DNA of 64,000 nt from Candidatus Poribacteria bacterium (GCA_965222805.1 CBDCUX010000005.1:2978777-3042776), one strand, 5' to 3'; counted from the first letter of the stretch, positions 12,934-63,579 are shown. Numbers and translations are program-made. The notes: a model not told the origin generated them from the letters alone.

Positions 12934-15900
12934 TTAAAAACGCGGCAGTTCATGCGTCACGTGGCGTGTGTTGTATTCAAGTTGATAGCGGAGGTACGCG
13001 GGATCCTGTGGGTAATTTTCCGCATCGGGATACGGATAGACAGACATGTCGTGGAATGGTAGGGGTCCAACTGTCTGCGAAGACAGTGTATTGATATCGC
13101 CATCTTTATCCCATCCGTCGCTGTAGAGGATGAAATCTCGCTCCCAACCCTCTTCCAATGGCGGCAGGTTGTCGGCATCGAACTCGACAGTCATCTCGTC
13201 GCCTGCGTTCAAGATGACATACATATCGTCAATCTCCTCCAGCAGGGGTGTCACTTCTCCGTGCCGGGTGTAATACCCCGCCAGATCTCGCCACTGCTTC
13301 GTTGTTACAACTTCATTGTAATCAAACAGATGCGGCGCGTGAGGGGTCGGGCGATACATCTTAGAAAAGCCGCGGTAGTGGAGGTCTGCGTGATTCGGAA
13401 GCAGCGTCGTGATACGGGTCGGCACGTCCTGCTCGCCGATTGTGAAAAACGCTGAATCCCAGTAAATCTGCATATCGGTTGTAATTTTTACCTCCCGATC
13501 CTCCGACAGGAATTTGCCCGTTAGATCGATGCAGATAGTCTTGTTTTTACCCGCCGGAATGCCAATGGGGTCGATGACTGTCTGCCACTCTCCATTTTCA
13601 TCACGAACTTGTAGGTAAGGAAAAATAGGGTTAATTGATGGATTCTGCGAGAGTGCTACATTGATACTGGTATCAGTTGGGAAGATCCAGCCGGTGAGGA
13701 ATAAAGTTAGCTGCAGGTCATCACGCACGTCCCCTAAATCGAGAACGATGAAGTGGGGATCAACGACACCTTGGAATGCCCCCGGTTCGTGTTCAATCGC
13801 ATAGCGATAATCGGTCGCTTTGAGTGCATCGGAGATATCGTATCCATGGTGGTCGAGTGCCGTGTATGGACGATGAATCTCTTTCGCCGCGTAGATCTTG
13901 AACTCTGGAAACGGCGGTGGGGTATACTTCTCATCGACGAAGATTTGTGTCCCGGCGGGATGGTCTATGGCAAGCAGCTTGACCATATCAAAATAGGCGG
14001 TCTCCCAGAGTTCCTCTGTAATCTGAAGCGAATAGACTCCTGCCTTCGGCTTCATGAGTTCACCGGGAATTTTGACGTAATCTGCGGTTTCAGCGGGTGC
14101 GAGAAATCCCATTGGTGTGACCATCCCAAGCGGGCTGCGCCACAGCAGATCTGTTACGAACTGATAACCACCACCGTCATAAACGTAGAGGAATGGACAC
14201 GACCCTTTTAACACCTGCTTTTCGAGGATGCGCTGGTTTGACTTGGGGGTGATGACATTTTGTGGAACGCCGTTTGTCCAGACAACCCGCAGTACATCTG
14301 CCTGTTGCTCTTTTCCCAAACCGAAATGCGTTATCGGGTCGGTAATGTATTTTATCTGGTAGAGTTCCCCAACCTTGAGTTCCACTTTGGCACCAATACC
14401 GTCAATGTTGTTCTTGTTGTTACCGGCGTTGACACCCTCTAACTTCACTTGCAGCCAACTGTTTTGATCCCCACCCTCGTTGCGCAGCACTACCACTCTA
14501 CCATCGAGGTCAATCAGGAAGAGGTCAAGGTCTCCGTCGTTGTCATAATCGCCAACGGTCCCGTCACCGCCGCTCCGAATTGTATCAGGCAGGAGATTTG
14601 AGGCGTCGGTGAAGCGACCTGTCCCATCGTTCCGAAACAGGAAAACGCCACGCCCCTCCGCTTCTCGTGGCACACCGATAAGCCACAGATCCAAAAAACC
14701 GTCGTTGTCATAATCGAGGAAATGGACATCTGAACCGCGCACACCTTCTGCGGCGTTAATAGCCTCCTCAGACGAACGCACATCGGGGGCAAAGGTGCCA
14801 TCGCCGCGGTTTCGATAGAGCTGATGAGGAGTTTCACCATCGGTTGTTAGAACCAGGTCAATATCGCCATCGTTATCGTAGTCACCGACTGCAACCGCTG
14901 TGAAAGAATAGTTTTGGGATAACCCTATTTCATCGGTCAACGCCTCCATTTTTCCTTGACGTAGGTTTGTGTAGAGGGTACAGCCACTCCCGTCATTTAT
15001 GATCAGCAGGTCAGTATCGCCATCATCGTCAAAATCGCCGATCCCTGCATCCCGTGCACCGGGGCGTTCCGGTGGGATAAAGGTCTGATCGCTGACATCG
15101 CTGAAAACACCATCCCCATTGTTGCGACGCATTTCCACCCGGTCGTCCGTTGCGAACAGATCCAGATCGCCGTCATGGTCATAATCGACAAACAGGGTTG
15201 GTTTGCTGTTCTTTGAATCCTGATCCGGTTGGGCGACGGTAGACTCTGTCATCTCGGTAATTTCCGTGAAGCTGCCCGCTCCATCATTGCGGAGAAAGAT
15301 AGGTCCCTTGTCTCCGGACAGACAGAGATCCGGGTCGCCATCCTTATCGATATCAGCGAAGGCGGCGGTGCCTCCCCGGTGCCCGATTTGTGCAGCGGGG
15401 ACAAATTCTCCACCTTCGTTCCGAAAGAGATTAGGTGTAGCGTTTAATACAACGGAGGGGATATACAGATCGAGATCGCCCTCGTTATCGTAGTCTGTCA
15501 GGAGAATGTTGGAACGTTCTCCGTTCAGGTCGGCAAGCCCGATTTCCTGAGTCAAATCGGCAAAGCTAATCTCGATTGGTGGTGTCTGCTTTGCTTTCAC
15601 TCGTGCCTTGAACCCGGGGCTGAATTCTTCGATTGGATGCCCCAAGATGTTCGTCACTAACTCTCCGATCCCCTGTTGATAGCGGGGACTTCGCTTTTGG
15701 ACGTTCTCAAAAATTTGAATATATCGGGCTGCCCCTTTGGCGTCGCCTTGGTCTATCAAAACCAGCCCCTGTTTCAGATACTTCAGGAACTCTTCATCGG
15801 CGTCCCACAGCAGGGCATTCAGCTCCATGCAGATCCGCTTCGCTTCCTCAAGTTGTTCCCGCCGTAAAAGTGAATTTGCCAACTTGAGCACCACCACCAC

Positions 15901-16443
15901 ATTCGCTGGGGTCCTCCCACGCAACGCCCGCAGGTGGGAAATCGCTTTATCCGTTGCCTCCGGGCTATCCCGCTGACCCAGATAGTGGCGCACCAGTTCA
16001 TAGCGCACTTCGAGGTCGTCGGGTGCAAGTTTCACTGCCTCCAGAATAGCGGCAACTGCTTCCGCCGCTTTCCCTTGCGATTGATAGATCTCCGCCGAGA
16101 TGAAATGTAACCGGCTATCCATCGGTTCAACCTCAAGCCCATGTTTGACCCACGTTTCCGCTTCCTCACGTTGCTTGAGGCGTAGATGCGCGACGGCGAG
16201 GTTGCCGTAACCGATCGATTCGTCGGGTACTAAGTTGACAAGTCCCTGAAATTGCTCAATCGCTTGATGCGGTTGGGATTCTTCGAGATAAGCCAATCCA
16301 AGGTTCTGGTGACGAATCGCGGATGTGACGATTTCGTCAGCGGTCTGTTGCGAGTTGGCAGTTGGGATGCATAGGAGCAGTAAAACGTGAAGTATGAAAC
16401 ATGATAAGAGAAGATTGATTGGTTTAGGAGTAGAGAAGTTCAT
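12934..16443 (-). CDS. CRTAC1-family protein: signal peptide, TPR repeats, FG-GAP/VCBS repeats, ASPIC/UnbV C-terminal domain
   Basis: 1169 aa. Repeated DYDNDGDLDL / GDFDDDGDTDL calcium-binding FG-GAP-like motifs. N-terminal TPR helices. The C-terminal roughly 400 aa is beta-rich, as in ASPIC/UnbV. Confidence 0.7.
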   Translation of the reverse strand: MNFSTPKPINLLLSCFILHVLLLLCIPTANSQQTADEIVTSAIRHQNLGLAYLEESQPHQAIEQFQGLVNLVPDESIGYGNLAVAHLRLKQREEAETWVKHGLEVEPMDSRLHFISAEIYQSQGKAAEAVAAILEAVKLAPDDLEVRYELVRHYLGQRDSPEATDKAISHLRALRGRTPANVVVVLKLANSLLRREQLEEAKRICMELNALLWDADEEFLKYLKQGLVLIDQGDAKGAARYIQIFENVQKRSPRYQQGIGELVTNILGHPIEEFSPGFKARVKAKQTPPIEISFADLTQEIGLADLNGERSNILLTDYDNEGDLDLYIPSVVLNATPNLFRNEGGEFVPAAQIGHRGGTAAFADIDKDGDPDLCLSGDKGPIFLRNDGAGSFTEITEMTESTVAQPDQDSKNSKPTLFVDYDHDGDLDLFATDDRVEMRRNNGDGVFSDVSDQTFIPPERPGARDAGIGDFDDDGDTDLLIINDGSGCTLYTNLRQGKMEALTDEIGLSQNYSFTAVAVGDYDNDGDIDLVLTTDGETPHQLYRNRGDGTFAPDVRSSEEAINAAEGVRGSDVHFLDYDNDGFLDLWLIGVPREAEGRGVFLFRNDGTGRFTDASNLLPDTIRSGGDGTVGDYDNDGDLDLFLIDLDGRVVVLRNEGGDQNSWLQVKLEGVNAGNNKNNIDGIGAKVELKVGELYQIKYITDPITHFGLGKEQQADVLRVVWTNGVPQNVITPKSNQRILEKQVLKGSCPFLYVYDGGGYQFVTDLLWRSPLGMVTPMGFLAPAETADYVKIPGELMKPKAGVYSLQITEELWETAYFDMVKLLAIDHPAGTQIFVDEKYTPPPFPEFKIYAAKEIHRPYTALDHHGYDISDALKATDYRYAIEHEPGAFQGVVDPHFIVLDLGDVRDDLQLTLFLTGWIFPTDTSINVALSQNPSINPIFPYLQVRDENGEWQTVIDPIGIPAGKNKTICIDLTGKFLSEDREVKITTDMQIYWDSAFFTIGEQDVPTRITTLLPNHADLHYRGFSKMYRPTPHAPHLFDYNEVVTTKQWRDLAGYYTRHGEVTPLLEEIDDMYVILNAGDEMTVEFDADNLPPLEEGWERDFILYSDGWDKDGDINTLSSQTVGPLPFHDMSVYPYPDAENYPQDPAYLRYQLEYNTRHVTHELPRF

Positions 16444-26436: not shown

Positions 26437-27447
26437 ATGCGTTCTCACAATGACTTCCGCCGCTACCCCTTACTCATCGTGGTTGGTTGCATACTCACGA
26501 TGTTTTGCATCTCTTCCATCAATGCGGCTTCAATCAAGACCAGCTACAAGTATCAAGAGATTAAGCGGCTCCATAAAATGGTTGCCCAAAACAGTGAACC
26601 GGCAGGGATTAAGATGCTGATTCAGAAATCGCGTGCCTTTATCGCGGAGCATCCAAAATACAAACGGATTGATCAGGTCTACTACATCTTTGGTAATGCA
26701 CTGAACCAAGCAGGAGATACCGAGGAAGCGGCTAAGGCTTATCGACAACTTGTAGAGAATTATCCAAAAGCCACTTATTTCGCTGCTGCTCTGTTAGAGA
26801 TGGGATTAGCCTACGACCGGCTGGGGCAGCATGACAAAGCAGATGCAGCGTATCGTCAATTGGTTGAACACCCAAAATATGGCTCACGCGCGCCTGCGAA
26901 GACGGCGAAGCGGTTACTGGAACTAAAAAAGGAGGATCGTACCGGCGAGATTCATGCAAGATCCTCACCCAGAAATCGAGCGGATGGACTGGTTGGCAAA
27001 AAGGCAATCGCTTTTAACGTGACAGACCTCAACGGCAACGACCTGTCGTTGGAGAAATATCGCGGCGAGGTAATCTTGCTTGATTTCTGGGCGGTTTGGT
27101 GTGGACCGTGCATCGCTGAAATGCCTAACGTGAAACAGGTTTACGAGAAATATAAGGATGCGAACTTCCAAATTATTGGTATTAGCCTCGATCAGCATCG
27201 GAATACACTGGTGCGTTACCTAGAACAGCAGGGGATTACTTGGCCCCAGTTTTTCGATGGAAACGGCTGGCGGAATCAGGTGGCGGAGATGTATGGCATC
27301 AGTGCTATTCCACACACCTACCTCATTGATGGTGAAGGCGTGGTTCGTAAGGCAAATGTGCGAGGGAGAGCCCTTGAACCGGCGGTTGCCGAACTAGTCC
27401 GAGAAAACAACGCGAAATTGAAGGACGCCGATCCTACCGGGAAATAG
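26437..27447 (+). CDS. TlpA-family thiol-disulfide oxidoreductase with N-terminal TPR domain
   Basis: Signal peptide, TPR helices, then a thioredoxin fold with WAVWCGPC active site. Confidence 0.75.
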   Translation: MRSHNDFRRYPLLIVVGCILTMFCISSINAASIKTSYKYQEIKRLHKMVAQNSEPAGIKMLIQKSRAFIAEHPKYKRIDQVYYIFGNALNQAGDTEEAAKAYRQLVENYPKATYFAAALLEMGLAYDRLGQHDKADAAYRQLVEHPKYGSRAPAKTAKRLLELKKEDRTGEIHARSSPRNRADGLVGKKAIAFNVTDLNGNDLSLEKYRGEVILLDFWAVWCGPCIAEMPNVKQVYEKYKDANFQIIGISLDQHRNTLVRYLEQQGITWPQFFDGNGWRNQVAEMYGISAIPHTYLIDGEGVVRKANVRGRALEPAVAELVRENNAKLKDADPTGK

Positions 27448-27468: not shown

Positions 27469-28362
27469 CTAAGAACCTGTTTTAAAAAGAAAAACACTAC
27501 TCAAGCGTTAATGTTTACGTTTAATCATTGGAGGAGTCCATACTGACCCAATGAAAGGCATAAACATGACCCGAACAAACTATCCCACGGATTTGACCGA
27601 TGCCCAGTGGGAAAACCTATTACCCTATCTGCCAAAACCTTCACCATTAGGCAGACCTCTCAAGTGGGAGATGCGCTCAGTTATCAACGCTATGTTTTAC
27701 ATAGTCAAGTCAGGGTGTCAATGGCGAATGCTTCCTTATCAGATGCCACCGTGGCAAACGGTCTATTCCCACTTTAGAAAGTGGAAAGCCTTAGGTACAT
27801 GGCTTATGATTCATCAAGCACTTCATGAACAAACCCGTTGTGATATTGGCAAAGCACCCTCACCGACAGTAGCTATCATTGACAGTCAATCGGTCAAGAC
27901 GACTGAACTGGCAAATAGTAGGGGGTTTGATGCGCATAAGAAAGTCAAAGGCCGTAAACGTCATATAGTCACCGATACGATTGGCATTCCATTGGGAGTC
28001 GAGGTTACTGATGCCAATGTCAGTGATAACCAAGTCGCAATAGAGTTACTGACAGAAATCTTTAGTTGGCACATAACGATTCAGTTAGTCTGTGCTGATG
28101 CTGGCTATCGTGGCGAATTAGGCGACTATTTATACTTGACGCATCAGTGTCGATTGGAAATCGCTCCACCTCTTGGGCAATCGGGGTTTGTGGTTGTCCC
28201 ATTGCGCTGGATTGTGGAACGCACCTTTTCTTGGTTCGGTTGGTTTCGCCGATTGACTTTGGACTATGAACGCTCGGCTGAGACCGCTGAGGCGATGGTG
28301 TACATTGCTTCCATTTACTTGATGCAAAATCGTATCAAATGACTTTTAAAACAGGTTCTAAG
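27469..28362 (+). mobile_element. IS5-family insertion sequence (about 894 bp) with 19-bp terminal inverted repeats
   Basis: Left inverted repeat CTAAGAACCTGTTTTAAAA (27469-27487) and right inverted repeat TTTTAAAACAGGTTCTTAG (28344-28362) are exact reverse complements. Single transposase ORF inside. Confidence 0.8.
27551..28342 (+). CDS. IS5-family DDE transposase
   Basis: DAQWE..LLP...GRP.....V.NA..Y....GC.WR.LP, ..IDSQSVK.., ..ADAGY.. are conserved blocks of IS5/IS4-type transposases. 263 aa. Confidence 0.8.
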   Translation: MKGINMTRTNYPTDLTDAQWENLLPYLPKPSPLGRPLKWEMRSVINAMFYIVKSGCQWRMLPYQMPPWQTVYSHFRKWKALGTWLMIHQALHEQTRCDIGKAPSPTVAIIDSQSVKTTELANSRGFDAHKKVKGRKRHIVTDTIGIPLGVEVTDANVSDNQVAIELLTEIFSWHITIQLVCADAGYRGELGDYLYLTHQCRLEIAPPLGQSGFVVVPLRWIVERTFSWFGWFRRLTLDYERSAETAEAMVYIASIYLMQNRIK

Positions 28363-28406: not shown

Positions 28407-29489
28407 ATGAAATCGACCCAATTTCCCATACTAATTGTTTTGGTCCTTTCAATTGTAATAGTCGTCCTAGTTATTTTGACTATAGCTCGACCATCTCTAT
28501 TTCAGCCAGACATTTTCGTCCAAGATTCTCAGGAATTGAGTTTGCCTGAAGGTGCTAGAGCCCACCTCAGTAAGGGTGAAATAAATGAGATAGCCTATTC
28601 TCCCGATAGTAGTCGTCTCGCAGTTGCCAGTTCTATCGGGGTTTTGATACATGATGCACGAACCGGTGAAGAACTGAGGCGACTCAAGGGACATAGGGCA
28701 GAGGTCTATAGCGTCGCGTTTAGCCCGGATGGCAGCATCCTCGCCAGTGGGGCTGGAGACGATACCGTCCGTCTGTGGGATGCAGTCACGGGTAAGCACA
28801 AACGAACACTCAAAGGGCATTCAGCCTATAGTGTGGCATTCAGTCCAGATGGTAGCACGCTTGCAAGCGGGAGTGCGGACCAAACCAGCCGTCTGTGGGC
28901 TGTTCTGCGACAACTTCTCAGTTACAACGGGGGAATGGGTGCGGACCAAACCATCCATCTGTGGGATGTCGCCACAGGTGAATCCAAGGGGGTGCTCACA
29001 GGACATGCAGCACAAGTTACGAGCATCGCTTTCAGTCCAGATGGCGGGACTCTTGCGAGTGGGGGTAGTGACGGCAGAGTGCGGTTGTGGGATGGCATCA
29101 CAGGGGAGCATCTCAAAAATCTCACTGGTCATGGTCAGCTGTGGTTCATCTGGGACTTAGCGTTCAGTCCGGATGGCAGCACCCTCGCATGTGCAACCTT
29201 TGACGGGGTGAAATTCTGGGATGTTGTCACAGGACAGGCCACAACTTCATTTGCAGGGGAGGCTGTGATGGGTATTGCGTATAGTCCAAATGGCACTACC
29301 CTTGCAAGTGGGGGTGACGACGACGACCCCACCATCCGTCTGTGGGATGTCGCCACAGGCGTTCACAAGCAAACACTCACTGGTCATGGTCAGTGGTTCA
29401 TCTGGGACTTAGCGTTCAGTCCGGATGGCAGCACCCTCGCAAGCGGGTCACGGGACGGAACGTTGCTCCTGTGGGACTTGCACCGATAA
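28407..29489 (+). CDS. WD40-repeat beta-propeller protein, paralog 1 (N-terminal signal anchor)
   Basis: Repeated AFSPDGS.LASG..D.T.RLWD units. Start set at ATG 28407 (GAGGAG RBS), because the longer track ORF begins inside the IS right inverted repeat. Contains an in-frame partial duplication (GCGGACCAAACCAGCCGTCTGTGGG / GCGGACCAAACCATCCATCTGTGGG). Confidence 0.7.
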   Translation: MKSTQFPILIVLVLSIVIVVLVILTIARPSLFQPDIFVQDSQELSLPEGARAHLSKGEINEIAYSPDSSRLAVASSIGVLIHDARTGEELRRLKGHRAEVYSVAFSPDGSILASGAGDDTVRLWDAVTGKHKRTLKGHSAYSVAFSPDGSTLASGSADQTSRLWAVLRQLLSYNGGMGADQTIHLWDVATGESKGVLTGHAAQVTSIAFSPDGGTLASGGSDGRVRLWDGITGEHLKNLTGHGQLWFIWDLAFSPDGSTLACATFDGVKFWDVVTGQATTSFAGEAVMGIAYSPNGTTLASGGDDDDPTIRLWDVATGVHKQTLTGHGQWFIWDLAFSPDGSTLASGSRDGTLLLWDLHR

Positions 29490-29638
29490 AGGGCGTCAAC
29501 GAGGAGGGGATTATAAACCTCCTCGATTTTGGTGCTGTAATAACCCAAGCTGTTCTAACCTACACCCATTCACAATCGAAGTTGACTTACCCATTCCAAG
29601 TACCGGCGTGGCATTTTTGCGACGGCGGTGTAGCATAG
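29490..29638 (+). pseudogene. Out-of-frame remnant of dockerin-like repeat and T9SS-type tail downstream of WD40 paralog 1
   Basis: The frame after the stop reads GVNEEGIINLLDFGAVITQ..., homologous to DVNRDGVVNAQDLVIVAARFG of paralog 2. It is separated from the WD40 ORF by a stop codon. Confidence 0.4.
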
Positions 29639-29882
29639 TTTCGACATCCTCTTTGTAAATACAACCCTCCCTTTGAAATCACAACGCATGTCAAAAGTAG
29701 ATGCAAAGTTGCCCGGAGAGCGGATTTGCCGACACACGCGGTTTTTTGCACAATACGCTTCGCATGATTTAGGATAATTGTGGTATCGAAATTGCGTATG
29801 GTTAATGTACCAATTGAATTTCGCTCGGCAACGATTCGCGTTAATCTTATCCAGTGCCATTAAAATGTCAATAGGACCTATA

Positions 29883-31367
29883 ATGAAAACAATGCAATTT
29901 TCTATACTCACGCTTATCCTTGGGATGATCCTGTTTTTACCAAACACCTTTGCCCAAGATTACACGCGATGGGGTCTACCTGAAGGTGCCAAAGCCCGTC
30001 TTGGTAAAGGACGGATATCTGGTAATATTGCGTATTCTCCTGATGGTGCTCTGCTCGCTGTTGCCAGTAGTATCGGTATTTGGCTCTATGATACGGGGAC
30101 CTATCAAGAGGTTGCCCTGCTCACTGGGCATACGAATCGGGTCTATAGTGTTGCGTTTAGCCCGGATGGGAACACACTCGCAAGTGGTGGAGGGAGGCAG
30201 GCCATGACATCACTACGGCTGTGGGATGTTACTACAGGACAGTCCATAGCCACACTCACAGGGCATGAGTGGGTGATCTATAGCGTTGCGTTTAGCCCGG
30301 ATGGGAACACACTCGCAAGTGGGAGTGGGGACGATACCATCCGCCTATGGGATGTCGTCACGGGCGAACACAAGCAGACACTCACCGGGCATACGGGTTC
30401 GGTCAGGAGCGTTGCGTTCAGCCCGGATGGAAACACGCTGGCAAGTGGGAGTTCGGACGATACTATCCGTCTGTGGGATGTCGTCACAGGCGAACACAAG
30501 CAGACACTCACCGGGCATACGGGTTCGGTCAGGAGCGTTGCGTTCAGCCCGAATGGGAACACGCTCGCTAGTGGAAATACGGACGGAACTATCCATCTGT
30601 GGGATACCGTGACGGGGGCAAATCAACGGACCTTCACTGGACATACAAGGCTGGTCAGGAGCACCGCGTTTAGCCCGGATGGCACCACACTGGCAAGTGG
30701 GAATGAGGATGGCACGGTGCTTCTGTGGGAACTTAGCCCCACAGCGGCACCACAACTGCTCGGGGATGTCAACCGCGATGGTGTGGTGAACGCCCAAGAT
30801 TTAGTGATCGTTGCTGCGCGGTTTGGGCAGAGGGAACAGAATGGTGCTGATGTCAATGGGGATGGAGTTGTCAATATTTTCGATCTTGTCATGGTCGCTG
30901 GGCTGCTTAGCGATACGGCAGCCGCGCCTTCGGCGCATCCACAGTTACTGGCAAGGCTCACCGTTGCGGAAGTCGAGGATTGGATCAACCAAGCGCAGGG
31001 GTTAGCCCTCACGGATGCAACTTTGCAAAGAGGAGTTCTCTTTCTTGAACATTTGCTCGCGGCGTTGACCCCGACAAAGAATGCCCTGTTGCCTAACTAC
31101 CCGAATCCGTTCAATCCAGAGACGTGGATGCCGTATCAACTCGTTCACGCTGCCGATGTCCAAGTCACCATTTATGACACAAAGGGCGCGATGGTGCGTC
31201 AATTAGATTTGGGGCATCAGCCTGCAGGATATTACACGGATCGGTCAAAGGCGGCGTATTGGGACGGGTACAATGGGAGTGGTGAATCGGTGGCAAGCGG
31301 GGTCTATTTCTATCAACTCCGGGCGGAGGATTATTCAGCCACGAGACGGATGGTAATCGTCAAGTAG
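29883..31367 (+). CDS. WD40-repeat protein paralog 2 with C-terminal dockerin-type repeats and T9SS C-terminal sorting domain
   Basis: Signal peptide (MKTMQFSILTLILGMILFLPNTFAQ), WD40 repeats, two DVN(G/R)DGVVN..DL dockerin-like repeats, then NYPNPFNPETW...GVYFYQLRAEDYS..RRMVIVK matching the Por/T9SS C-terminal-domain consensus. Confidence 0.75.
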   Translation: MKTMQFSILTLILGMILFLPNTFAQDYTRWGLPEGAKARLGKGRISGNIAYSPDGALLAVASSIGIWLYDTGTYQEVALLTGHTNRVYSVAFSPDGNTLASGGGRQAMTSLRLWDVTTGQSIATLTGHEWVIYSVAFSPDGNTLASGSGDDTIRLWDVVTGEHKQTLTGHTGSVRSVAFSPDGNTLASGSSDDTIRLWDVVTGEHKQTLTGHTGSVRSVAFSPNGNTLASGNTDGTIHLWDTVTGANQRTFTGHTRLVRSTAFSPDGTTLASGNEDGTVLLWELSPTAAPQLLGDVNRDGVVNAQDLVIVAARFGQREQNGADVNGDGVVNIFDLVMVAGLLSDTAAAPSAHPQLLARLTVAEVEDWINQAQGLALTDATLQRGVLFLEHLLAALTPTKNALLPNYPNPFNPETWMPYQLVHAADVQVTIYDTKGAMVRQLDLGHQPAGYYTDRSKAAYWDGYNGSGESVASGVYFYQLRAEDYSATRRMVIVK

Positions 31368-31423
31368 AACCATCAAGGCTTACCTGAATGGTAAACAAAT
31401 TTTCAGAAAAGGAGCACTTTAAG

Positions 31424-33253
31424 ATGAAAACAGTTGTGGCTTTGTTTATTCTTTTTGTCCTATTTCATGCAAGCACTTTCGCCCAAGATTCCCCACAATG
31501 GAATTTACCCGAAGGTGTCAAAGCACGCTTTGGTAAGGGTAAGATATTTGAACTTCAATATTCGCCGGACGGTACTCTGCTCACCGTCGCTAGTGGTATC
31601 GGTATTTGGCTCTATGATACAACGACCCTTCGAGAGGTTAGCCTACTTACTGGGCATACGGGTTTGGTCAAGAGTATAGCGTTCAGCCCGGATGGACGGA
31701 CGCTTGCCAGTGGAAGTTCAGACAGCACAGTGCGCTTGTGGGATGGTGTGACGGGTAGACACAAGCGGACACTTAAAGGGCATACGGGTTCAGTTAATAG
31801 CATCGCCTTTAGCCCGGATGGGAAAACCCTTGCCAGTGGAAGTGGGGACGGGACGTTGCGATTGTGGGATGGCATGACGGGTATATATAAGCAAACGCTT
31901 ACGGGACATATCTCTGGGGTCAGTAGCATCGCTTTCAGTCCAGAAGGCACCACGCTCGCGAGCGGAAGTTCGGATAGCACAGTACGGCTGTGGGATAGTG
32001 TGACGGGTGAACATAAGCATATACTCACAGAGCATACGCGGAGAGTTACTAGCGTTGCGTTCAGTCTAAATGGGAAGACCCTCGTCAGTGGTGGGTATGA
32101 CACGGTACGGATGTGGGATGGCGTAACGGGTGAACACAAGCGAATACTCATAAGACATACGTGGGGTGGTACTAGCGTCGCGTTCAGTCCGGATGGAGAT
32201 CTGCTCGTTATTGGCGGGTCGGATGGCATAGTGCAACTACGGGTTGCTGCCACGGGTGTATACGATCAGACACTCAGAGGACATACGGAGGAGGTCAATA
32301 GCATCGCCTTTAGCCCGGATGGGAAGACCTTGGCTAGTGGGAGTGAGGACAGCACGGTGTGGCTGTGGGATGCTGCCACAGGGCATCCCATAGCTACGCT
32401 GATTGGACATACGGAGGAGGTCACTACTGTTGCGTTCAGCCCGGATGGGGACATACTTGCAAGCGGGAGCGTAGACAAGATGGTGAGGCTGTGGGATGTT
32501 GCCATGGGGTGGCACGAAGCCACACTTGCTAAGCATACAGAGGAGGTTTACGATATTGCGTTCAACCCGGATGGAGGCACACTCGCAAGTGGGAGCCGGA
32601 AAGGCGCGGTGCACCTGTGGGATGCTGTCACAGGACAACACAAAGCCACATACTGGAATCGAGGATTAGTTAAAACTATAACGTTCAGTCCCGATGGATA
32701 CACATTCACAAGTGGAGGCAGAGATGGCAAGAGGCACCTGTGGGACGCTGTCACGGGACGGTACAAAGCCCCACTCGGAAAACATATATCCCGTGCCTTC
32801 AGCATTGCGTTCAGTCCGGATGGCAGCCTCCTTGCAACTGGAAATAAGAACGGCACAGTGCACCTATGGGATACACGCACGGGGGCACGTCTCAAAACAC
32901 TCACAGGCGATGACCAAACGTCTTGGATCTATAGCCTAGCATTCAGTCCTGATAGCACTACCCTCGCAAGTGGGACCCATACAGGAGTGCATCTCTGGGA
33001 TGTCGTCACCGGACAGTCCACAGCTACATTTGCAGGGGGCAATGTGACCAGTGTTACGTTCAGTTCGGATGGCAGCACACTTGCAGCTGGAGGCTTTGAT
33101 GTGTGGCTATGGGACGTTGCGACGAAACAGCTCGTAACTACGTTCACAGGGCATACGGGCGTTGTCAACAGTGTTGCCTTCAGCCCAGATGGGGACATAC
33201 TTGCAAGTGGGAGTCGAGACGGTACAGTGCTCCTGTGGGATTTGCGTCGATAG
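31424..33253 (+). CDS. WD40-repeat beta-propeller protein, paralog 3 (signal peptide, about 14 WD repeats)
   Basis: Start ATG 31424 with AAAAGGAG RBS. Repeats of AFSPDG.TLASGS.D.TVRLWD. Downstream of the stop an out-of-frame DVNKAGVANVLDFSDV dockerin remnant is visible (33256-33330). Confidence 0.75.
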   Translation: MKTVVALFILFVLFHASTFAQDSPQWNLPEGVKARFGKGKIFELQYSPDGTLLTVASGIGIWLYDTTTLREVSLLTGHTGLVKSIAFSPDGRTLASGSSDSTVRLWDGVTGRHKRTLKGHTGSVNSIAFSPDGKTLASGSGDGTLRLWDGMTGIYKQTLTGHISGVSSIAFSPEGTTLASGSSDSTVRLWDSVTGEHKHILTEHTRRVTSVAFSLNGKTLVSGGYDTVRMWDGVTGEHKRILIRHTWGGTSVAFSPDGDLLVIGGSDGIVQLRVAATGVYDQTLRGHTEEVNSIAFSPDGKTLASGSEDSTVWLWDAATGHPIATLIGHTEEVTTVAFSPDGDILASGSVDKMVRLWDVAMGWHEATLAKHTEEVYDIAFNPDGGTLASGSRKGAVHLWDAVTGQHKATYWNRGLVKTITFSPDGYTFTSGGRDGKRHLWDAVTGRYKAPLGKHISRAFSIAFSPDGSLLATGNKNGTVHLWDTRTGARLKTLTGDDQTSWIYSLAFSPDSTTLASGTHTGVHLWDVVTGQSTATFAGGNVTSVTFSSDGSTLAAGGFDVWLWDVATKQLVTTFTGHTGVVNSVAFSPDGDILASGSRDGTVLLWDLRR

Positions 33254-33329
33254 AGGATGTCAACAAGGCTGGAGTTGCGAACGTCCTCGATTTCTCAGAC
33301 GTTATGCGGATGGGGCATCCTACCTCCTA

Positions 33330-34988
33330 CTAGTTTGATTTTACGTTCCCCTCTACCAACGTGAGAATTTGATTTGCTTCAATCGCTTCAAGCTGTTCCT
33401 GTAGACCGCTGGGCCAGTGGATTTCAATCCGATTGATTTGGCGGTGTTTCCCTAATCCAAAGTGCAACCGCATGTCATTCTGCGATAGGTAGCTTGAACC
33501 GCTCCGAACTTCCCGTATCTGTGTTAGGTTTCCGGTTGTGACCTTAACCCGTGCCCCAATCGCATCCCGATTGCTGCGCGTACCAATTAGTTTGAGGGTT
33601 AACCATGTATTCTGTCCTCCCCTATTCTCCAATAGGTCTGGCGTACCCTTCAGGTTCGTCACGAGCAGGTCGAGATCGCCGTCATTGTCGTAATCAGCGT
33701 ATGCGAAACCGCGACTAACCTTCTCCAAGCGCAGACCAGAACCTGAGTCGATAGCTATCTCGTCAAAGGTGCCATCTCGATTGTTGCGGAAGAATAGATT
33801 GGACTGTTCATAAAAGCCAGTCGGATTGAATGCCTGAACATTCTCGTCCAGATGTCCGTTGGCAACGAATAGATCCTGATAACCGTCGTTGTCGTAGTCG
33901 CAGAAACCCACCCCCCACGCCAAGTAGGGCAAACTCATTGTCCCAATCTTTGATGCATAGCTCACATCCGAAAATAGCCCATCCCGCTCGTTGTGATAGA
34001 GGGTGTTTGTCTGATCCTGGAAGTTGGTGACGATAAGGTCTAAGTAGCCATCGTTATCGTAATCTCCGAAGTCAGCGCCCATGCCGTTCTCTGCTTCCCC
34101 ATCTTCGCTGAACCCAACGCCTGCGGCCAAACTGACATCGGTAAAAGTGCCATCGCTGTTGTTGCGGTAGAGGAAGTTTTGGTCGGCGTCGTTGGCGATA
34201 TAGACATCCATGTCACCGTCGTCGTCGTAATCCCCCCAAGCGAGGGCGAGTCCGCGCCCTGTTGCCTCAGAAAAACCTGCGGATTCCGTCACATCGGTAA
34301 AGGTTCCGTCGCCGTTATTGTGATAGAGGATATCCAATTCCCCCTCATAGAGGCGCGGGTCACAGTAAACACGCACCCCTTTATCCATGCAGACCTGATC
34401 CGATTCGATTGCATACTTCACATAGTTTGTTATATAGAGGTCTAAAAAGCTGTCGTTGTCGTAATCGACGAAGGCGCAGCTTGCCCCCCAGCGCGTGTCT
34501 CCGGTGCCTGTGTGTGTTGTGACATCGGTCAACGTGCCATCCCCATTGTTACGGAAAAAGGCGTTTGCCCCGAAGTTTGTCACGTATAGATCGGGAAACC
34601 CGTTGTTGTCGTAATCTCCAACTGTGCACCCCATACCGTAGCCTGCATCGGCGACGCCTGCTGCGATTGCGACATCGGTGAACGTACCATCCCCGTTGTT
34701 GCGATAGAGCGCGTTCCGCGGTGGTTCGCTCCCATCTGATTGTCTCTCCGTAAGCGGAGAGAGTTCCGTCCCATTGACGAGGTAGATGTCTTGGAGTCCG
34801 TCGTTGTTGTAATCCAGAAACGCTGCGCCCGCACCGAGAGGTTCGATGAAGTATCGCTGCCCGCGCCCACCGTCGTGGTGTTTGAAGTGGATACCTGCTT
34901 CCTTTGTGACCGATTTAAACTTGATTGGGTCTGTGGAGGCAGCGCTGCTGATGAGAAGCAGTAGGAGAGATATAAAAAAAAGGTTCAT
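33330..34988 (-). CDS. CRTAC1-family protein (FG-GAP repeats + ASPIC/UnbV domain), secreted
   Basis: Signal peptide, repeated DYNNDG..D / GDYDNNGFPDL / DYDNDGYLDL motifs, C-terminal UnbV-like beta domain. Confidence 0.7.
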   Translation of the reverse strand: MNLFFISLLLLLISSAASTDPIKFKSVTKEAGIHFKHHDGGRGQRYFIEPLGAGAAFLDYNNDGLQDIYLVNGTELSPLTERQSDGSEPPRNALYRNNGDGTFTDVAIAAGVADAGYGMGCTVGDYDNNGFPDLYVTNFGANAFFRNNGDGTLTDVTTHTGTGDTRWGASCAFVDYDNDSFLDLYITNYVKYAIESDQVCMDKGVRVYCDPRLYEGELDILYHNNGDGTFTDVTESAGFSEATGRGLALAWGDYDDDGDMDVYIANDADQNFLYRNNSDGTFTDVSLAAGVGFSEDGEAENGMGADFGDYDNDGYLDLIVTNFQDQTNTLYHNERDGLFSDVSYASKIGTMSLPYLAWGVGFCDYDNDGYQDLFVANGHLDENVQAFNPTGFYEQSNLFFRNNRDGTFDEIAIDSGSGLRLEKVSRGFAYADYDNDGDLDLLVTNLKGTPDLLENRGGQNTWLTLKLIGTRSNRDAIGARVKVTTGNLTQIREVRSGSSYLSQNDMRLHFGLGKHRQINRIEIHWPSGLQEQLEAIEANQILTLVEGNVKSN

Positions 34989-35198: not shown

Positions 35199-35204
35199 GT
35201 GCGC

Positions 35205-35905
35205 CATGATGTAATGTAATATACAACAGACTTTGATTCTGTCATGGAAACTTACTCCATATGAGTCTTACCCTAACCGCGTTGCTGGAAACAGCAGGGT
35301 AAAAAGCAAGGGAAAATGGCTTAGAAAACAATGAATGTAGACATCGACTATGAGCCCGACTAAACTGGCATGGTGAGTCAACCAACTGATGTCTGAAGCC
35401 TCGTGAACTCCAAACAGGTGAATCTACAAAGGGGACAGGCTTGGAAACCTGTCTGACAAGCCTGTAGCCAAAAGGCATGAGCTGATGATACTACATTGTA
35501 GGTATGTAGTGTTAGTAAGTCAATCGCTTCGGGGTAAAGTCAGCACCTAATCCAGTTATTGTGTATTACATGAGAATCATGGAGTCCCTAAGTCGTCTCA
35601 TTTGAGAAGATAAGGGAGAGGAGGACAGGTAGGTAGCTGAGTCCGATACTCACCTGTGCGATATGTAATGTATTAAACAGTTTACCAAGCATGTCCAGTA
35701 TTGTATACAGCATGGCTTGTATCAGTAAGACAGCAACAGGCGAAAATACCAGAAGGCTGGGTCGCTTTTGTTTTACAACCAGCAAGGCAAACTCTATACA
35801 ATAGGGAAAGCCGTGTGCGGTGAAAGTCGAACGCACGGTTTGGAAGCAGGGAAAATGCCGTGAGGCATCTACCTATGCTTACTACTATAAAGTTATTGTG
35901 ACGCG
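35205..35905. other. Roughly 700-bp ORF-free, lower-GC intergenic segment with several stable hairpins; candidate structured ncRNA or decayed gene
   Basis: No ORF of at least 60 aa on the plus strand; the minus-strand ORFs have implausible sequences. Hairpins include UACCCU..GCUG-GAAA-CAGC..AGGGUA (GNRA tetraloop) at about 35268-35312 and GACAGG-CUUGGAAA-CCUGUC at about 35434-35454. Confidence 0.3.
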
Positions 35906-49896: not shown

Positions 49897-50940
49897 ATGC
49901 ACGAGACAGATCAGGACCTGTGGACAGATTCGCGTTGTACTTTGCTTGCGAGTGAAAGGTTCGGACCGTTTATTAAGCTTGGCGACGGGAAGATTTTGAC
50001 GATTGAAGACAACGCAACTGTTATCAGTGCGGACAAAGGCGAGACTTGGTCGGCACCGCGCCCTATATACGATGGTTCAGGGCCCGGTAAACCTAGCAGT
50101 AGCGGGGTGATGGTTCGGACAAGCGAGGGTCCCATCGTTTTCGTTTACATGGATATGGAAGGTTTCAAGTGGACTTGGGATGACGACCTCCACCAAGCCG
50201 CCGAAGATGTGAACCTCAATGTGTGGGCAATTCGTAGCGAAGATGAGGGACTGACTTGGTCTGGACGGCAGCAGATTTTTGAGGGCTATTGCGGGGCACT
50301 GATCCATATAATTCAGACCTCCACCGGCGAGGTTGTTGTGCCGATTCAGCGACTGTTACGCGATCCGGACCAGCACGGTATCTGTGTTTACGTCTCCGCC
50401 GATAGTGGTGAGACGTGGTGTCACAGTAATATCATCGATCTCGGTGGACACGGGCACCACGATGGCGCAATGGAACCGACGTTGGTCGAACTTACCGATG
50501 GGCGATTGTGGCTACTGATACGGACCAATCTCGGCAAGTTTTGGTCGGCATATTCATCGGACAAGGGTTTGTCGTGGCGCGTGATAAAACCGACCGATAT
50601 TGACGCTAGCAGTGCGCCGGCGGCGATGCTTCGTCTTGCCAGCGGTAGATTGGCGTTGGTGTGGAATCGCTTTTACCCTGAAGGCGCGACAAGTTATCCA
50701 CTCCGCGGCGGTGACAACAATTTGTCCTCGGTATCAACGAGTTGGCATCGCGAGGAGGTGTCGCTTGCGTTTTCGGAGGATGAGGGTGAAACTTGGTCTG
50801 ATCCGGTCGTTATCCTACGTATGAAAGACAGAGGACCGTCGTATCCGCATATTTTTGAACCCGAACCCGGCGAACTTTGGGTGACGACGCAGTTCAGGGA
50901 TAAGACAGCGATACGCTTGCGAGAATCCGATTTTGTGTAG
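49897..50940 (+). CDS. BNR-repeat (sialidase/exo-alpha-sialidase-like, GH33) protein
   Basis: Five BNR/Asp-box motifs S-x-D-x-G-x-T-W: SADKGETWS, SEDEGLTWS, SADSGETWC, SSDKGLSWR, SEDEGETWS. Confidence 0.7.
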   Translation: MHETDQDLWTDSRCTLLASERFGPFIKLGDGKILTIEDNATVISADKGETWSAPRPIYDGSGPGKPSSSGVMVRTSEGPIVFVYMDMEGFKWTWDDDLHQAAEDVNLNVWAIRSEDEGLTWSGRQQIFEGYCGALIHIIQTSTGEVVVPIQRLLRDPDQHGICVYVSADSGETWCHSNIIDLGGHGHHDGAMEPTLVELTDGRLWLLIRTNLGKFWSAYSSDKGLSWRVIKPTDIDASSAPAAMLRLASGRLALVWNRFYPEGATSYPLRGGDNNLSSVSTSWHREEVSLAFSEDEGETWSDPVVILRMKDRGPSYPHIFEPEPGELWVTTQFRDKTAIRLRESDFV

Positions 50941-51019
50941 TGTTGTGCTATTATAAAAGTAAAAAGGATGGGGGTGACAAGCCCTTGTCTGAATCCCTTT
51001 AGTGAGGTGAGGAGAATAG

Positions 51020-52000
51020 ATGAACGACAATAGACCGACGCGCATCGCCGATGTAATTGGTGGGCACATTCATCCGGCGCTCTGTGGCACGCAGAGTGGG
51101 GCACTACTTGCTGTCTACAATAAAGAGGGCGGCGGTGGGAAGGAACTCCTATTAAGCCGCTCCACCGATGGCGGCGTGACGTGGAGTGATTCAGTCCCTA
51201 TTCCTGCTATCCGTAACTGCTCAATCTATCCCGGCTCGCTGGTGACATTAAGCGATGGACGGATTCTACTCAATTGGTCCTGCTATCACAAAGCGGGCGA
51301 GAAACTCTGGCGGGAACCTCAATTTTCGGTCAGCGGCGACGAGGGTGAAACTTGGTCCGAATCGAGGGACTATCCTATCACCGACCGCACCAACTATACC
51401 TGTATGCGCCACGCGCCGGTCGAATGGTCTACGGATACGTGGGTGTGTCCATTTTATGACCGCACCGTTCTGTACGATATGGGAGCGGATCAGATTACGA
51501 CTTTTGGGGATGGACGAAATCATGGCATGGTGCCGATTGTGCGCACATCCAAAGGAACGTTAATTAGCGGTGCCCCGCAGACGGTTGCACCCGTGCCCGT
51601 GGGTGTGCCGGGGAATATGGTAAGAGGGCTCCGTTCAACAGATGACGGTAATACTTGGCACGCGTTGAACGTCTTTCCGCACTTTGGGGTTGCTGGGTAT
51701 GATCTAACTGTGTTGACGAACGGGTGGATTGTTTTAACCTACATCGTCTACGGCGTCGGTGTCGATGGGGAGTTTAGCTACGAACTGGTTGTATCACGCG
51801 ATGATGGGGTAACGTGGGACCCCGAGGGCACAATTGAAGTCCACAATCCGGGCAGACGCATCATGGGGCGGGGTTGGCCCCGCACGGTGCAGATTGATGC
51901 CGAGACCCTTGGCACTCTCTTTTACGATCTCGATCAAGATCAGCCAGGAGGGCCGGGGGTGTTCTTTGTTCGGACACCATTGGCGCGATTGGGCGGTTGA
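51020..52000 (+). CDS. BNR-repeat (sialidase-like) protein, second paralog
   Basis: Asp-boxes STDGGVTWS, SGDEGETWS, STDDGNTWH, SRDDGVTWD. Confidence 0.7.
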   Translation: MNDNRPTRIADVIGGHIHPALCGTQSGALLAVYNKEGGGGKELLLSRSTDGGVTWSDSVPIPAIRNCSIYPGSLVTLSDGRILLNWSCYHKAGEKLWREPQFSVSGDEGETWSESRDYPITDRTNYTCMRHAPVEWSTDTWVCPFYDRTVLYDMGADQITTFGDGRNHGMVPIVRTSKGTLISGAPQTVAPVPVGVPGNMVRGLRSTDDGNTWHALNVFPHFGVAGYDLTVLTNGWIVLTYIVYGVGVDGEFSYELVVSRDDGVTWDPEGTIEVHNPGRRIMGRGWPRTVQIDAETLGTLFYDLDQDQPGGPGVFFVRTPLARLGG

Positions 52001-58693: not shown

Positions 58694-59935
58694 CTACAAT
58701 TTCGAGGAGAGTACTTCGTCGATTTCCTCCTGATATTCGTAAACCTCACAGTTCTCCACCTCGCTTATTTGTACGGCTCGCCCGGCTCTGGCTGACTCAA
58801 ATATCGCGTAGAGCACTGCCACATCCTTCAATCCGCAGACGCCATCCACCTCAATCTCCCGTCCGTTGAGGATAGACTCCCCCAGTTCGTAGTATTCAAG
58901 CGCGATGAGTTTCCAGTCCACCGCAGGATCCCCAACAGAAACGCCCGACGGAAAGAGATATTCCGCCAGCGGCTCTAGAGAGAATCCATCTATGGATGCC
59001 AGAATCTCCTCTTGGTTCATCACTTCCTGCGCTCTCCGCTGCATGCTGATCCTGCCACCGCGTGTCCCAAAGCCGTTGATGGTCCCCCCATCACCGAAGA
59101 TGAGTTCGCCGCCGCAACTGCCGTGCCCCGCAAGACCGACCAGCCAGTTGACGGTCGCCCCGTTCTGCATTTTGAACATCGCCAGCGAGGTGTCCTCTGC
59201 CGTCGCTGGAACTTCCGCTTCCATCGCCTGAAAACGGTTCTGGTAGAAGGTGTAGGTGTCACCGATGCTTTTGGGCTTTCTCCTTACCGGTTCGACCAAC
59301 CGCACATCCCCGTAGACTTCTGCTATATCACCAAGTTGATACCGGATCATGTGGGTGAAGTGAACCGCCATGTCGAGGAGTGCTCCGCCGCGTTCTTTAA
59401 GGTGCCGCCAAGGTGTGATGAAGATTCCATCGCCCGGACTTAGCGCATGGAACAGCGCCATATAAGGTGTTCCTATCGCGCCTGTCTCCAACAGATAGTG
59501 GACGATTCGAGCGGAGGGATCTCGTCGGAAGTTCTCCGCCACCGACAGATGACGGTTGTTCCGTGCTGCGGCTTCGATCATTTGTCGGCACGCCTTTACG
59601 GTGATTGCCATCGGCTTTTCTACCATCACATGGAGCCCTAGGTCTAGTGCCTGACACACGACATCGTGATGCACCGACGGATCTGTCACCACGTCTACGG
59701 CGGCAAGGTCGGGTATGGCACGCGCCATCTCCTCCAAGTCGGTGAAAATTTCTGGGCGGATACCTATCAGTTTCTCCGCTTCTAGGGCGGCAAGCTCGGC
59801 ATTCTCCCGGCGAATGTCACACACAGCACAGAGTTCCACGTTGGAGAAAGGACTCTGCACCAACTCCCGCAAACCGTACAGGTGCCGCGTCCCCATCCCG
59901 CCGCAGCCGACCAGCCCAAGTCTAATTTTGTCCAT
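58694..59935 (-). CDS. Gfo/Idh/MocA family oxidoreductase
   Basis: IRLGLVGCGGMG Rossmann N-terminus. Start ATG 59935 with GGAGGA RBS. The 61-aa Arg/Gly-rich upstream extension in the track ORF is rejected. Confidence 0.7.
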   Translation of the reverse strand: MDKIRLGLVGCGGMGTRHLYGLRELVQSPFSNVELCAVCDIRRENAELAALEAEKLIGIRPEIFTDLEEMARAIPDLAAVDVVTDPSVHHDVVCQALDLGLHVMVEKPMAITVKACRQMIEAAARNNRHLSVAENFRRDPSARIVHYLLETGAIGTPYMALFHALSPGDGIFITPWRHLKERGGALLDMAVHFTHMIRYQLGDIAEVYGDVRLVEPVRRKPKSIGDTYTFYQNRFQAMEAEVPATAEDTSLAMFKMQNGATVNWLVGLAGHGSCGGELIFGDGGTINGFGTRGGRISMQRRAQEVMNQEEILASIDGFSLEPLAEYLFPSGVSVGDPAVDWKLIALEYYELGESILNGREIEVDGVCGLKDVAVLYAIFESARAGRAVQISEVENCEVYEYQEEIDEVLSSKL

Positions 59936-59949
59936 GTCTCCTCCGCGAT

Positions 59950-60471: not shown

Positions 60472-60523
60472 GGTTCTAACCCTCCTCAAATCATTAGCTG
60501 TTGATTATTGAAAATGGTAGGTA

Positions 60524-60548
60524 AGGAACAACGATCGTTGTTCCCTAC
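60524..60548. repeat. REP-like palindrome GGAACAACGATCGTTGTTCC-CTAC
   Basis: Perfect 20-bp palindrome identical to 24982-25001. Confidence 0.65.
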
Positions 60549-60556
60549 TGCCCTTG

Positions 60557-61564: not shown

Positions 61565-61575
61565 TACATATCCTC

Positions 61576-62745: not shown

Positions 62746-62795
62746 CTATTGTTTCCTTTCTTTTTAGGGTGAGCACATCCGCTAATCTACGCTAA

Positions 62796-63548: not shown

Positions 63549-63579
63549 TGTGTGATTCTCCTTGTTCTCTGTCGTGCCC

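Follow-up and report, generated by a model that had tools for sequence, protein, structure and literature searches.

The DNA considered here, a 64,000-nucleotide stretch from a Candidatus Poribacteria bacterium (GCA_965222805.1, CBDCUX010000005.1:2978777-3042776) referred to throughout as the window, contains a tandem array of three genes encoding secreted WD40 beta-propeller proteins, designated P1 (28407-29489), P2 (29883-31367) and P3 (31424-33253). All three open reading frames (ORFs) are located on the plus strand, in a slot bounded by a gene encoding tetratricopeptide (TPR) repeats and a thioredoxin-like domain and by a convergent FG-GAP/ASPIC gene, and each was found to match PF00400 (E-values of 2e-70, 3e-63 and 1e-131 for P1, P2 and P3, respectively). 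The blade counts, obtained from 'SPDG' anchors, are 7, 6 and 14 in the same order, and the pairwise protein identity ranges from 44 to 54 %. The shared N-terminal motif (A/V)QD..W.LPEGAKARLGKG.I..YSPDG..LAVASSIGIWLYD is easily recognized in P2 and P3, whereas P1 has a more diverged version. By inspection, classical-looking signal peptides precede this motif in P2 (MKTMQFSILTLILGMILFLPNTFA, with apparent cleavage before QD) and P3 (MKTVVALFILFVLFHASTFA, with apparent cleavage before QD); the P1 leader is some 14 residues longer than the others, about 22 of its residues form a hydrophobic stretch, and an A-x-A cleavage site is not obvious. A tail composed of a dockerin and a C-terminal domain (CTD) is present in P2 only, while P1 and P3 stop after 'LLWDL'. 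An Rfam scan gave no match within the array itself. A preliminary description, made from the sequence alone, had recognized three tandem secreted WD40 paralogues with a common N-terminal region, of which only the middle one retains dockerin and sorting tail. These features were all recovered, with PF00404 and TIGR04183 passing in P2 alone, and the proposal that the family evolves fast is borne out at the structural level.

In the 494-aa P2 protein, a signal peptide and 6 WD40 blades precede a type I dockerin, which is followed by a helical spacer and an immunoglobulin-like (Ig-like) CTD. The dockerin (30759-30899, plus strand) scores 40.6 bits against PF00404 (cutoff 22.9, E 2.9e-10) and includes two Ca-binding loops of the D-x-N-x-D-G-x-x-N-x-x-D pattern, DVNRDGVVNAQD and DVNGDGVVNIFD, in which the D/N positions are invariant in 59 family members. 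The C-terminal beta-sandwich (31098-31358, plus strand), which begins LLPNYPNPFNPETW and belongs to the type A sorting domains of type IX secretion systems (T9SS) or to the FlgD_ig type, passes both TIGR04183 (32.4 bits, cutoff 23) and PF13860 FlgD_ig (41 bits, cutoff 27). In the AlphaFold model of P2 the confidence (pLDDT) is 86, with values above 90 over most blades, and residues 36-283 form 25 strands, corresponding to six blades and one N-terminal strand. The model of the tail (pLDDT 87.6) combines the dockerin with two long helices and a beta-sandwich built from about eight strands, for which Foldseek returned FlgD first (7eha, E 4.5e-5), followed by PorU (6za2, 2e-4), PorZ (5m11, 3e-4) and the translocon-bound T9SS cargo CTDs 8glk_D and 8gl6_D (E 2-4e-3). 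The predicted structure is thus compatible with a T9SS-type CTD and does not discriminate it from other Ig-like domains.

Homology searches with P2 returned thousands of matches, the best of which are Candidatus Poribacteria proteins of 820-865 aa, several of them named by NCBI as 'T9SS type A sorting domain-containing' or 'dockerin type I domain-containing' proteins. WD40 repeats, two dockerin loops and a NYPNPFNP CTD occur together in 142 of the 238 retrieved homologues (numbered within P0002-P0216 where cited below), and this combination, judged by sequence comparison, is the standard architecture in Candidatus Poribacteria, where hundreds of proteins possess it. Its earlier characterization as unusual is therefore not upheld; the pairing of WD40 repeats with a Por-type CTD was in fact published in 2014. 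A canonical member, about 830-860 aa long, begins with a Sec signal peptide and a conserved N-terminal strand, continues with two propellers made up of 14 WD40 blades and a short linker, and ends in a type I dockerin, a two-helix spacer and the Ig-like CTD.

P2 itself is not an intact reference copy, as had been assumed, but a recent six-blade deletion chimera of two 14-blade genes of sister strains, termed A (855 aa) and B (820 aa). Its sequence matches gene A of the syntenic locus L005 from upstream of the start codon to position 30551 and gene B of the same locus from 30538 to beyond the stop codon, with a single mismatch in each comparison. The crossover is located in the 14 nt common to both intervals (30538-30551, plus strand), which are identical in the two parents and fall within codons for AFSP(D/N)G. 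The deletion that gave rise to P2, estimated at about 3.7 kb, joined blades 1-5 of A to the last blade and the tail of B. Among the homologues, P0101 (451 aa, 5 blades) looks like an independent deletion variant. P0086 (488 aa) and P0039 (617 aa), considered as independent six-blade forms, were rejected as fragments of split genes on low-coverage contigs.

The truncated genes and their dockerin remnants

P1 encodes 360 aa with 7 WD40 blades, the scar of a collapsed blade and the long atypical leader, and P3 encodes 609 aa with a signal peptide and 14 WD40 blades in two propellers. The two genes end in ...LLLWDLHR-TAA (stop at 29487-29489) and ...VLLWDLRR-TAG (stop at 33251-33253), respectively. 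Downstream of each stop, a sequence resembling the first dockerin repeat can be read in the -1 frame of the plus strand: GVNEEGIINLLDFGAV at 29492-29539, non-coding, after P1 and DVNKAGVANVLDFSDV at 33256-33303, within the 76-nt spacer before the convergent FG-GAP gene, after P3. A Pfam scan of the two remnant peptides gave no match. With a hidden Markov model (HMM) built from 229 dockerin loops of this WD40 family (Z = 2327), the isolated peptides reach 5.3 bits for P3 and 4.1 bits for P1 (E about 2-4), which is not significant, and the fragments that bear them rank 4th and 7th among the non-genuine hits in the 2327 six-frame fragments of the window. The positional orthologues in two other genomes do reach significance: APVEDVNEDGVVNFFDLIL, terminated by a stop codon, scores 26.8 bits (E 3.5e-7) in L010, and in L007 the peptide GVNKDGDVNIFDFSDV, downstream of the P3 stop, reaches 13.5 bits (E 0.005). 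The dockerin origin of the remnants, which had been suspected from out-of-frame similarity past the stops, is thus established through these orthologues, the window alone being insufficient. The surviving part is confined to the first Ca-binding repeat, a single degenerate loop that is out of frame, and a tblastn search with 115 family tails detected nothing of the second repeat, the spacer or the CTD downstream of either stop.

The two truncated ends are related. P1 and P3 can be aligned at the DNA level without gaps from the last blade through the stop codon to the end of the remnant, with identical stop position and -1 offset. Their last three blades are collinear and exhibit common idiosyncrasies (LTG(H/D)xQ..WI..LAFSPD and a short VVTGQxTxxFAG blade), yet they share only about 65 % of their nucleotides, which indicates that the truncated end was inherited from a common ancestor gene, or copied, long ago. 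The same truncated end was found in every examined related assembly that contains P1 or P3 (L001-L007), and the same truncation is observed in the L010 gene of another species, which is about 67 % identical to P3 and ends in WDLHR followed by the stop. These observations point to one old event, inherited or copied, and not to the two recent frameshift or nonsense mutations suggested in the preliminary description. The distance from TGGGA to GATGTCAAC is 14 nt in the truncated copies versus 33 nt in the intact paralogues, so the linker between propeller and dockerin lost a length not divisible by three; such a shortening would have introduced the stop codon, with some 50 nt of the first dockerin repeat remaining out of frame. 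The linker length varies across the WD40 family, and the exact original mutation is consequently not reconstructable. Between the window and L007, about 20 % of the positions in the P3 remnant differ, with 6 non-synonymous and 2 synonymous codon changes by our own count, a pattern that fits neutral decay. A function of the remnants as intrinsic terminators was considered and rejected: a hairpin followed by GATTT(T/C) is possible, but its z-scores against shuffled controls are +0.3 and -1.5, and a scan for consensus terminators found none at either remnant.

Despite the absence of a tail, P3 behaves as a gene that is kept by purifying selection, as judged from sequence divergence. An orthologue with the same 609-codon ORF is present in L002 and L007. 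Comparison of the window with L007 (Nei-Gojobori method, 1,701 sites) gave a ratio of non-synonymous to synonymous substitution rates (dN/dS) of 0.24 at a dS of 0.24, based on 72 non-synonymous and 84 synonymous differences, where the neutral expectation is about 3:1. The flanking genes exhibit dN/dS values of 0.10-0.20 and dS values of 0.35-0.66 in the same comparison. Neither a neutral dN/dS of about 1 nor a disrupted ORF in the orthologues, either of which would mark a pseudogene, was observed, and P3 thus behaves as a conserved gene that functions without the tail. The exact P3 protein, with either start codon, is absent from a collection of 15 billion proteins in which P1, P2 and the FG-GAP protein of the same 6.76-Mb contig are present; one possibility is that the depositors annotated P3 as a pseudogene or with a different gene model.

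P1, on the other hand, is probably a decaying copy. This reading is based on independent frameshifts in two lineages, on the blade scar ('SADQTSRLWAV LRQLLSYNGGMG ADQTIHLWDV'), on the atypical leader and on the prevalence of non-synonymous changes. In L007 (138x coverage) P1 is frameshifted by a 2-nt deletion, while in L006 the start codon is lost, a 1-nt deletion is present and the gene ends in WDLHQ and a stop; the window and L006 differ by 14 non-synonymous versus 3 synonymous changes. The in-frame partial duplication that had been noticed in P1 is an exact 49-nt repeat (29141-29189 and 29393-29441, plus strand, 100 % identity) with a spacing of 252 nt, which encodes WFIWDLAFSPDGSTLA.

Variation of the slot among related loci

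Besides the window, 13 versions of the slot were available, taken as syntenic loci from metagenome assemblies and from GTDB species genomes titled Candidatus Poribacteria (the loci L001-L011 and L088 are cited individually). They contain between 0 and 4 WD40 genes in at least eight different architectures. No WD40 gene is present in L011. A single gene occupies the slot in L004 (P1 only), L008 (an intact gene of 833 aa), L009 (a 706-aa gene ending after the dockerin) and L010 (a P3-like tail-less gene of 654 aa), and in L088 a full-length gene, split at 2x coverage, adjoins the FG-GAP gene, the left end of the slot being uncovered. L006 combines a damaged P1 with a 683-aa gene ending after the dockerin; L002 contains P1, an A/B chimera of 861 aa and P3; L007 contains the frameshifted P1, an 830-aa gene and P3; and the full set of P1, A (855 aa), B (820 aa) and P3 is found in L001, L003 and L005. 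Three architectures were recovered from one sample, ERZ25067264, on backgrounds with differing flanks, and therefore represent co-resident strains and not switching within a clone.

The traces of recombination are visible at the nucleotide level. L004 has lost the whole interior of the array through a crossover that falls within the dockerin remnant, its sequence being of P1 type up to AAGGGCGTCAAC and of P3 type from AAGGCTGG, and gene A is a mosaic of identities along its length. Together with the P2 junction, these data point to a strain-variable tandem cluster in which the numbers of blades and genes vary through unequal recombination between identical stretches down to 14 nt long. A second, different type of tail truncation, which retains the dockerin but not the CTD, was noted in L006 (9034-11085) and L009 (11476-13596), where the genes end in ...NAASAP and a stop; each is the only long WD40 gene of its slot and stops 45 nt before the convergent FG-GAP gene.

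The distribution of P1 differs from that of its surroundings. The exact P1 protein occurs on 6 contigs from several samples, and the 360-aa ORF is intact in the window and in L001-L005. Exact-match look-ups of P2 (with two start codons), of the FG-GAP protein and of P0002 gave no recorded contig. At the DNA level, P1 of the window is 99.5-100 % identical to its counterparts in lineages whose thioredoxin gene is only 84-96 % identical, and in L006 the corresponding values are 95.7 and 83 %. The dS of P1 is 0.006-0.011 versus 0.35-0.66 for the flanking genes in the comparison with L007 (Nei-Gojobori), and 0.006-0.02 versus 0.35-0.76 across lineages. The near-identical tract has sharp edges (28396 to about 29600) and is either present or absent as a unit, being missing in L008, L009 and L011. 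Given this near-identity between diverged flanks and the sharp edges of the tract, a recent lateral exchange is indicated, and the simplest reading of the sequences is that P1 is a 1.2-kb cassette lately exchanged among co-resident Poribacteria by homologous recombination. At the position expected for P1, L008 and L009 (11011-11230) contain a palindromic element of about 60 nt (GGCGATGAATTGGGCTAC ... GTAGCCCAATTCATCGCC), which could be a REP- or MITE-like hairpin.

Interpretation and comparison with known systems

The explanation that we favour, with a probability of roughly 0.7, is that the array is a strain-variable tandem cluster of 'eukaryote-like' secreted WD40 propellers, in which P2 is a tailed chimera and P1 and P3 are tail-less owing to one old truncation. 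Homologous recombination between WD40 units of about 126 nt and between paralogous tails would be the driving process, and it would account for a slot that holds 0-4 genes with variable numbers of blades. The tail-bearing members would be exported by the Sec pathway and presumably brought to the cell surface by their CTD, where the dockerin may hold them on cohesin modules of sister family members. The outcome would be a surface decorated with propellers for protein-protein contacts with the host or the matrix, while the tail-less P3 would be periplasmic or released unanchored. A candidate for the cohesin partner is provided by the family itself: P0216 (928 aa, Candidatus Poribacteria, retrieved with P3 as query) combines WD40 repeats with a cohesin domain (PF00963, 35.3 bits, cutoff 24.1), a dockerin and a CTD. 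Candidate cohesin partners thus exist within the WD40 family, and their sequences suggest a head-to-tail cohesin-dockerin assembly of its members. Roughly a dozen P2 homologues possess a P0216-like sequence just before the dockerin.

The protein class to which the array belongs is already known. Kamke et al. (2014, PLoS One; PMC3909097) reported TIGR04183 in eukaryote-like proteins of Poribacteria, 'especially WD40 repeats', without settling how they are exported; P2 and its 14-blade relatives, from the same phylum and with the same pair of domains, are members of that class, and its classification is unchanged here. That study mentions no dockerin or cohesin modules and no dynamics at the level of a locus, and it was the sole relevant match in a literature search for dockerin, cohesin or T9SS, in which nothing on dockerin or cohesin modules in Poribacteria was found. 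What the present locus adds, from closed genomes, is the variation in copy and blade number (0-4 copies reshuffled by recombination), the mapped crossovers, two tail-less derivatives that are old and one laterally exchanged cassette.

With the type A cargo of the Bacteroidota T9SS (gingipains, as well as RemA and NucA, whose CTDs were bound in the SprA-PorV translocon), P2 shares an apparent N-terminal Sec signal and a C-terminal beta-sandwich of about 80-90 residues, and its predicted CTD fold superposes on the CTDs of PorU and PorZ and on the cargo CTDs in 8glk and 8gl6. It differs in that the organism lies outside Bacteroidota and in that the CTD fits the FlgD Ig-like domain equally or better. 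The dockerin resembles those of clostridial cellulosome dockerin-cohesin pairs, with two EF-hand-like Ca-binding loops and a helix after each. However, the cargo of the cellulosome consists of carbohydrate-active enzymes, whereas in P2 it is a WD40 propeller, and the P2 dockerin is internal, being followed by the helical spacer and the CTD. No scaffoldin was identified here, and cohesin binding by the P2 dockerin is a prediction. As for the array, repeat families that evolve by unequal crossing-over, such as bacterial surface repeat proteins and eukaryotic leucine-rich repeat clusters, exhibit the same crossovers at short identity, chimeras and truncated end copies, and no evidence of regulated or programmed switching was found in the WD40 array.

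Several observations weigh against the favoured explanation. The P2 CTD just misses the Pfam family Por_Secre_tail (PF18962, 25.7 bits, cutoff 27), and in the structural comparison it fits the FlgD Ig-like domain at least as well as T9SS CTDs. Neither a T9SS core gene nor a cohesin gene was found among the scanned window ORFs of at least 180 aa (all but the last three, at 58694-63626), and Por/T9SS structural genes were not found in poribacterial single-cell genomes, although these are incomplete (PMC3909097). The published evidence on a poribacterial T9SS machinery therefore leans towards its absence, and the surface-sorting step is based on domain homology alone. P2 may also be a crippled product: WD40 propellers usually comprise 7 blades, and a six-blade ring is unusual. 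The genes that are split by frameshifts in L005 (4x coverage) and L088 (2x coverage) may result from assembly errors, and these two loci are accordingly taken into account only for their overall layout. Finally, an intact 360-codon P1 ORF on 6 of the 8 compared contigs, and its spread over lineages, is somewhat at odds with the decay of this gene.

Among the competing explanations, one holds that the stops of P1 and P3, as already considered in the preliminary description, and the shortness of P2 are sequencing or assembly artefacts, and that all three are in truth full-length WD40-dockerin-CTD genes. Repetitive WD40 arrays are liable to assembly collapse, the low-coverage L005 and L088 do contain error-like split genes, and the exact P3 protein is missing from the collection that holds the P1, P2 and FG-GAP proteins. 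With agreement between independent assemblies used as a stand-in for read-level support, however, an identical P1 protein is found on 6 contigs from several samples, and P3 has the same length and end in L002 and in L007 at 138x coverage. A single-base correction could not restore the tail, since neither the second dockerin repeat nor the CTD is present past either stop in any frame, and the convergent gene follows P3 after 76 nt. The P2 junction lies within 14 nt of identity, and hundreds of bases on each side match one parent near-perfectly. Sequencing errors are thus ruled out for practical purposes, and the artefact explanation as a whole is very improbable. A programmed -1 ribosomal frameshift, by which some of the P1 and P3 protein would gain a short dockerin-like, Ca-binding peptide, is the least probable of the explanations considered. 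P1, P3 and their orthologues all keep the same -1 offset, no stop interrupts the -1 frame over about 150 nt upstream of both stops, a hairpin is possible just downstream, and the D-x-N-x-D-G-x-x-N-x-x-D pattern is well preserved in L010. But inspection revealed no slippery heptamer of the X XXY YYZ type near either stop, the hairpins are no stabler than the shuffled controls, and the extension would consist of a single degenerate repeat and end after 17-50 residues, at lengths that vary from genome to genome, while a dockerin needs two repeats. The substitutions in the remnant relative to L007 are moreover those of neutral sequence, and in-frame readthrough of P1 or P3 would yield no domain; frameshifting and readthrough were both rejected on these grounds.

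That P1 and P3 are both dead pseudogenes left by the decay of the array, with function confined to the tail-bearing genes, is unlikely. Both genes are devoid of the modules for sorting and anchoring, which are near-constant across the family, P1 has the blade scar, the atypical leader, the independent frameshifts and the 14:3 ratio of non-synonymous to synonymous changes relative to L006, and P3 has been lost from the slot in L004, L006, L008, L009, L011 and L088. P3 nevertheless retains an uninterrupted ORF of 609 codons, of the same length in L007 at a dS of 0.24, and its dN/dS of 0.24 (72 versus 84 differences) is that of a constrained gene. A P3-like tail-less gene is also the sole WD40 gene of the L010 slot, and the phylum has many other WD40 proteins that possess a signal peptide but no tail (e.g. 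P0044, P0110 and P0211). The locus might instead be dedicated to recombination-driven variation, by analogy with pilS/pilE or vls, the truncated copies serving as silent donor or anchor cassettes from which new propellers are generated by unequal exchange. This is quite improbable, even though at least 8 architectures occur among the 13 related loci (three of them in one sample), crossovers were mapped inside the repeats and inside the remnant, gene A is a mosaic and the P1 cassette was exchanged across lineages. The variants are found on backgrounds whose flanks differ by 1-17 %, i.e. they are differences between strains or species and not the result of clonal switching. No invertase, recombinase or dedicated organization of promoter-less cassettes was seen, several products look damaged (propellers of 5 or 6 blades and genes cut after the dockerin), and ordinary unequal crossing-over yields the same pattern in any tandem repeat family. 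A broader proposal, to which we give only slightly better odds and which is accordingly offered as speculation, regards the array as a diversification locus for surface propellers, in which P1, P3 and the remnants would act as anchors or donors, P1-like cassettes would sweep laterally across co-resident lineages that are 8-17 % divergent elsewhere, and export would depend on the CTD in the absence of a known T9SS. If true, it would imply selection on, or targeted exchange of, host-facing genes of a sponge symbiont.

Among the candidate factors of host interaction in sponge symbionts, WD40 and other eukaryote-like repeat proteins are the most discussed. Their export and diversification were left open in earlier work (PMC3909097, PMC8163846), and the mode by which such repeat proteins are delivered was described as unknown by Robbins et al. 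(2021; PMC8163846). Under the favoured explanation of a recombining tandem cluster, the locus exhibits a route of diversification in which tails are lost and tail-less forms can persist under selection. The near-identity of P1 amid neighbours with a dS of 0.35-0.76 speaks for a WD40 gene having been exchanged laterally; no lateral transfer of the WD40 class was detected in the demosponge survey, which compared disparate lineages (PMC8163846). The occurrence of cohesin, dockerin and CTD modules within one poribacterial family makes a self-assembling surface layer a testable idea. Many tail-less Poribacteria WD40 proteins of about 905-915 aa, including P0184 and P0210, were retrieved with P3 as query; they are named sigma-70 family RNA polymerase sigma factors, and these sigma-factor/WD40 fusions constitute a separate family with about 15 blades, ending in ...GSVLLWEINP.

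Flanking genes and other features of the window

The left anchor of the slot (26437-27447, plus strand) was identified by Pfam as a TPR protein with a thioredoxin-like (AhpC/TSA, Redoxin) domain, and is found in the same position in all 11 related loci whose sequence covers the left flank. The right anchor (33330-34988, minus strand), an FG-GAP/ASPIC-UnbV repeat protein convergent with P3, is likewise identified by Pfam and conserved in position in the related loci. Between the left anchor and P1, an IS5-family insertion sequence (27474-28357, plus strand; transposase 27551-28342) was detected through NF033580 (225.7 bits), DDE_Tnp_1 and DUF4096. Its terminal inverted repeats (GAACCTGTTTTAAAA / TTTTAAAACAGGTTC) are perfect over 15 bp, a short duplication of the target is present, and the element is located about 50 nt 5' of the P1 start codon. 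The element is present in the window genome only, being missing from all 13 related loci (window position 27473 joins 28358 in L001), and is hence a recent insertion, which may alter the transcription of P1.

To the right of the slot, a match to domains V/VI of group II introns (35806-35882, plus strand; Rfam RF00029, 55.3 bits, E 4e-8) lies in a stretch of about 677 nt (35199-35875), between the FG-GAP gene and an epimerase gene, that is missing from the syntenic L004. This insert probably represents all or part of a group II intron that has no ORF. The window is rich in the repeat-protein classes that are reported to be abundant in Poribacteria (PMC3909097): two FG-GAP/ASPIC-UnbV repeat proteins are encoded on the minus strand (12934-16443 and 33330-34988), one of them fused to TPR repeats, and the gene at 3415-6261 also contains TPR repeats. 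Two adjoining BNR/sialidase-like genes (49897-52000, plus strand) are located downstream of a 473-aa ORF without a Pfam match, in a region where the GC skew is strongly positive (0.14-0.17), as it is in the WD40 array.

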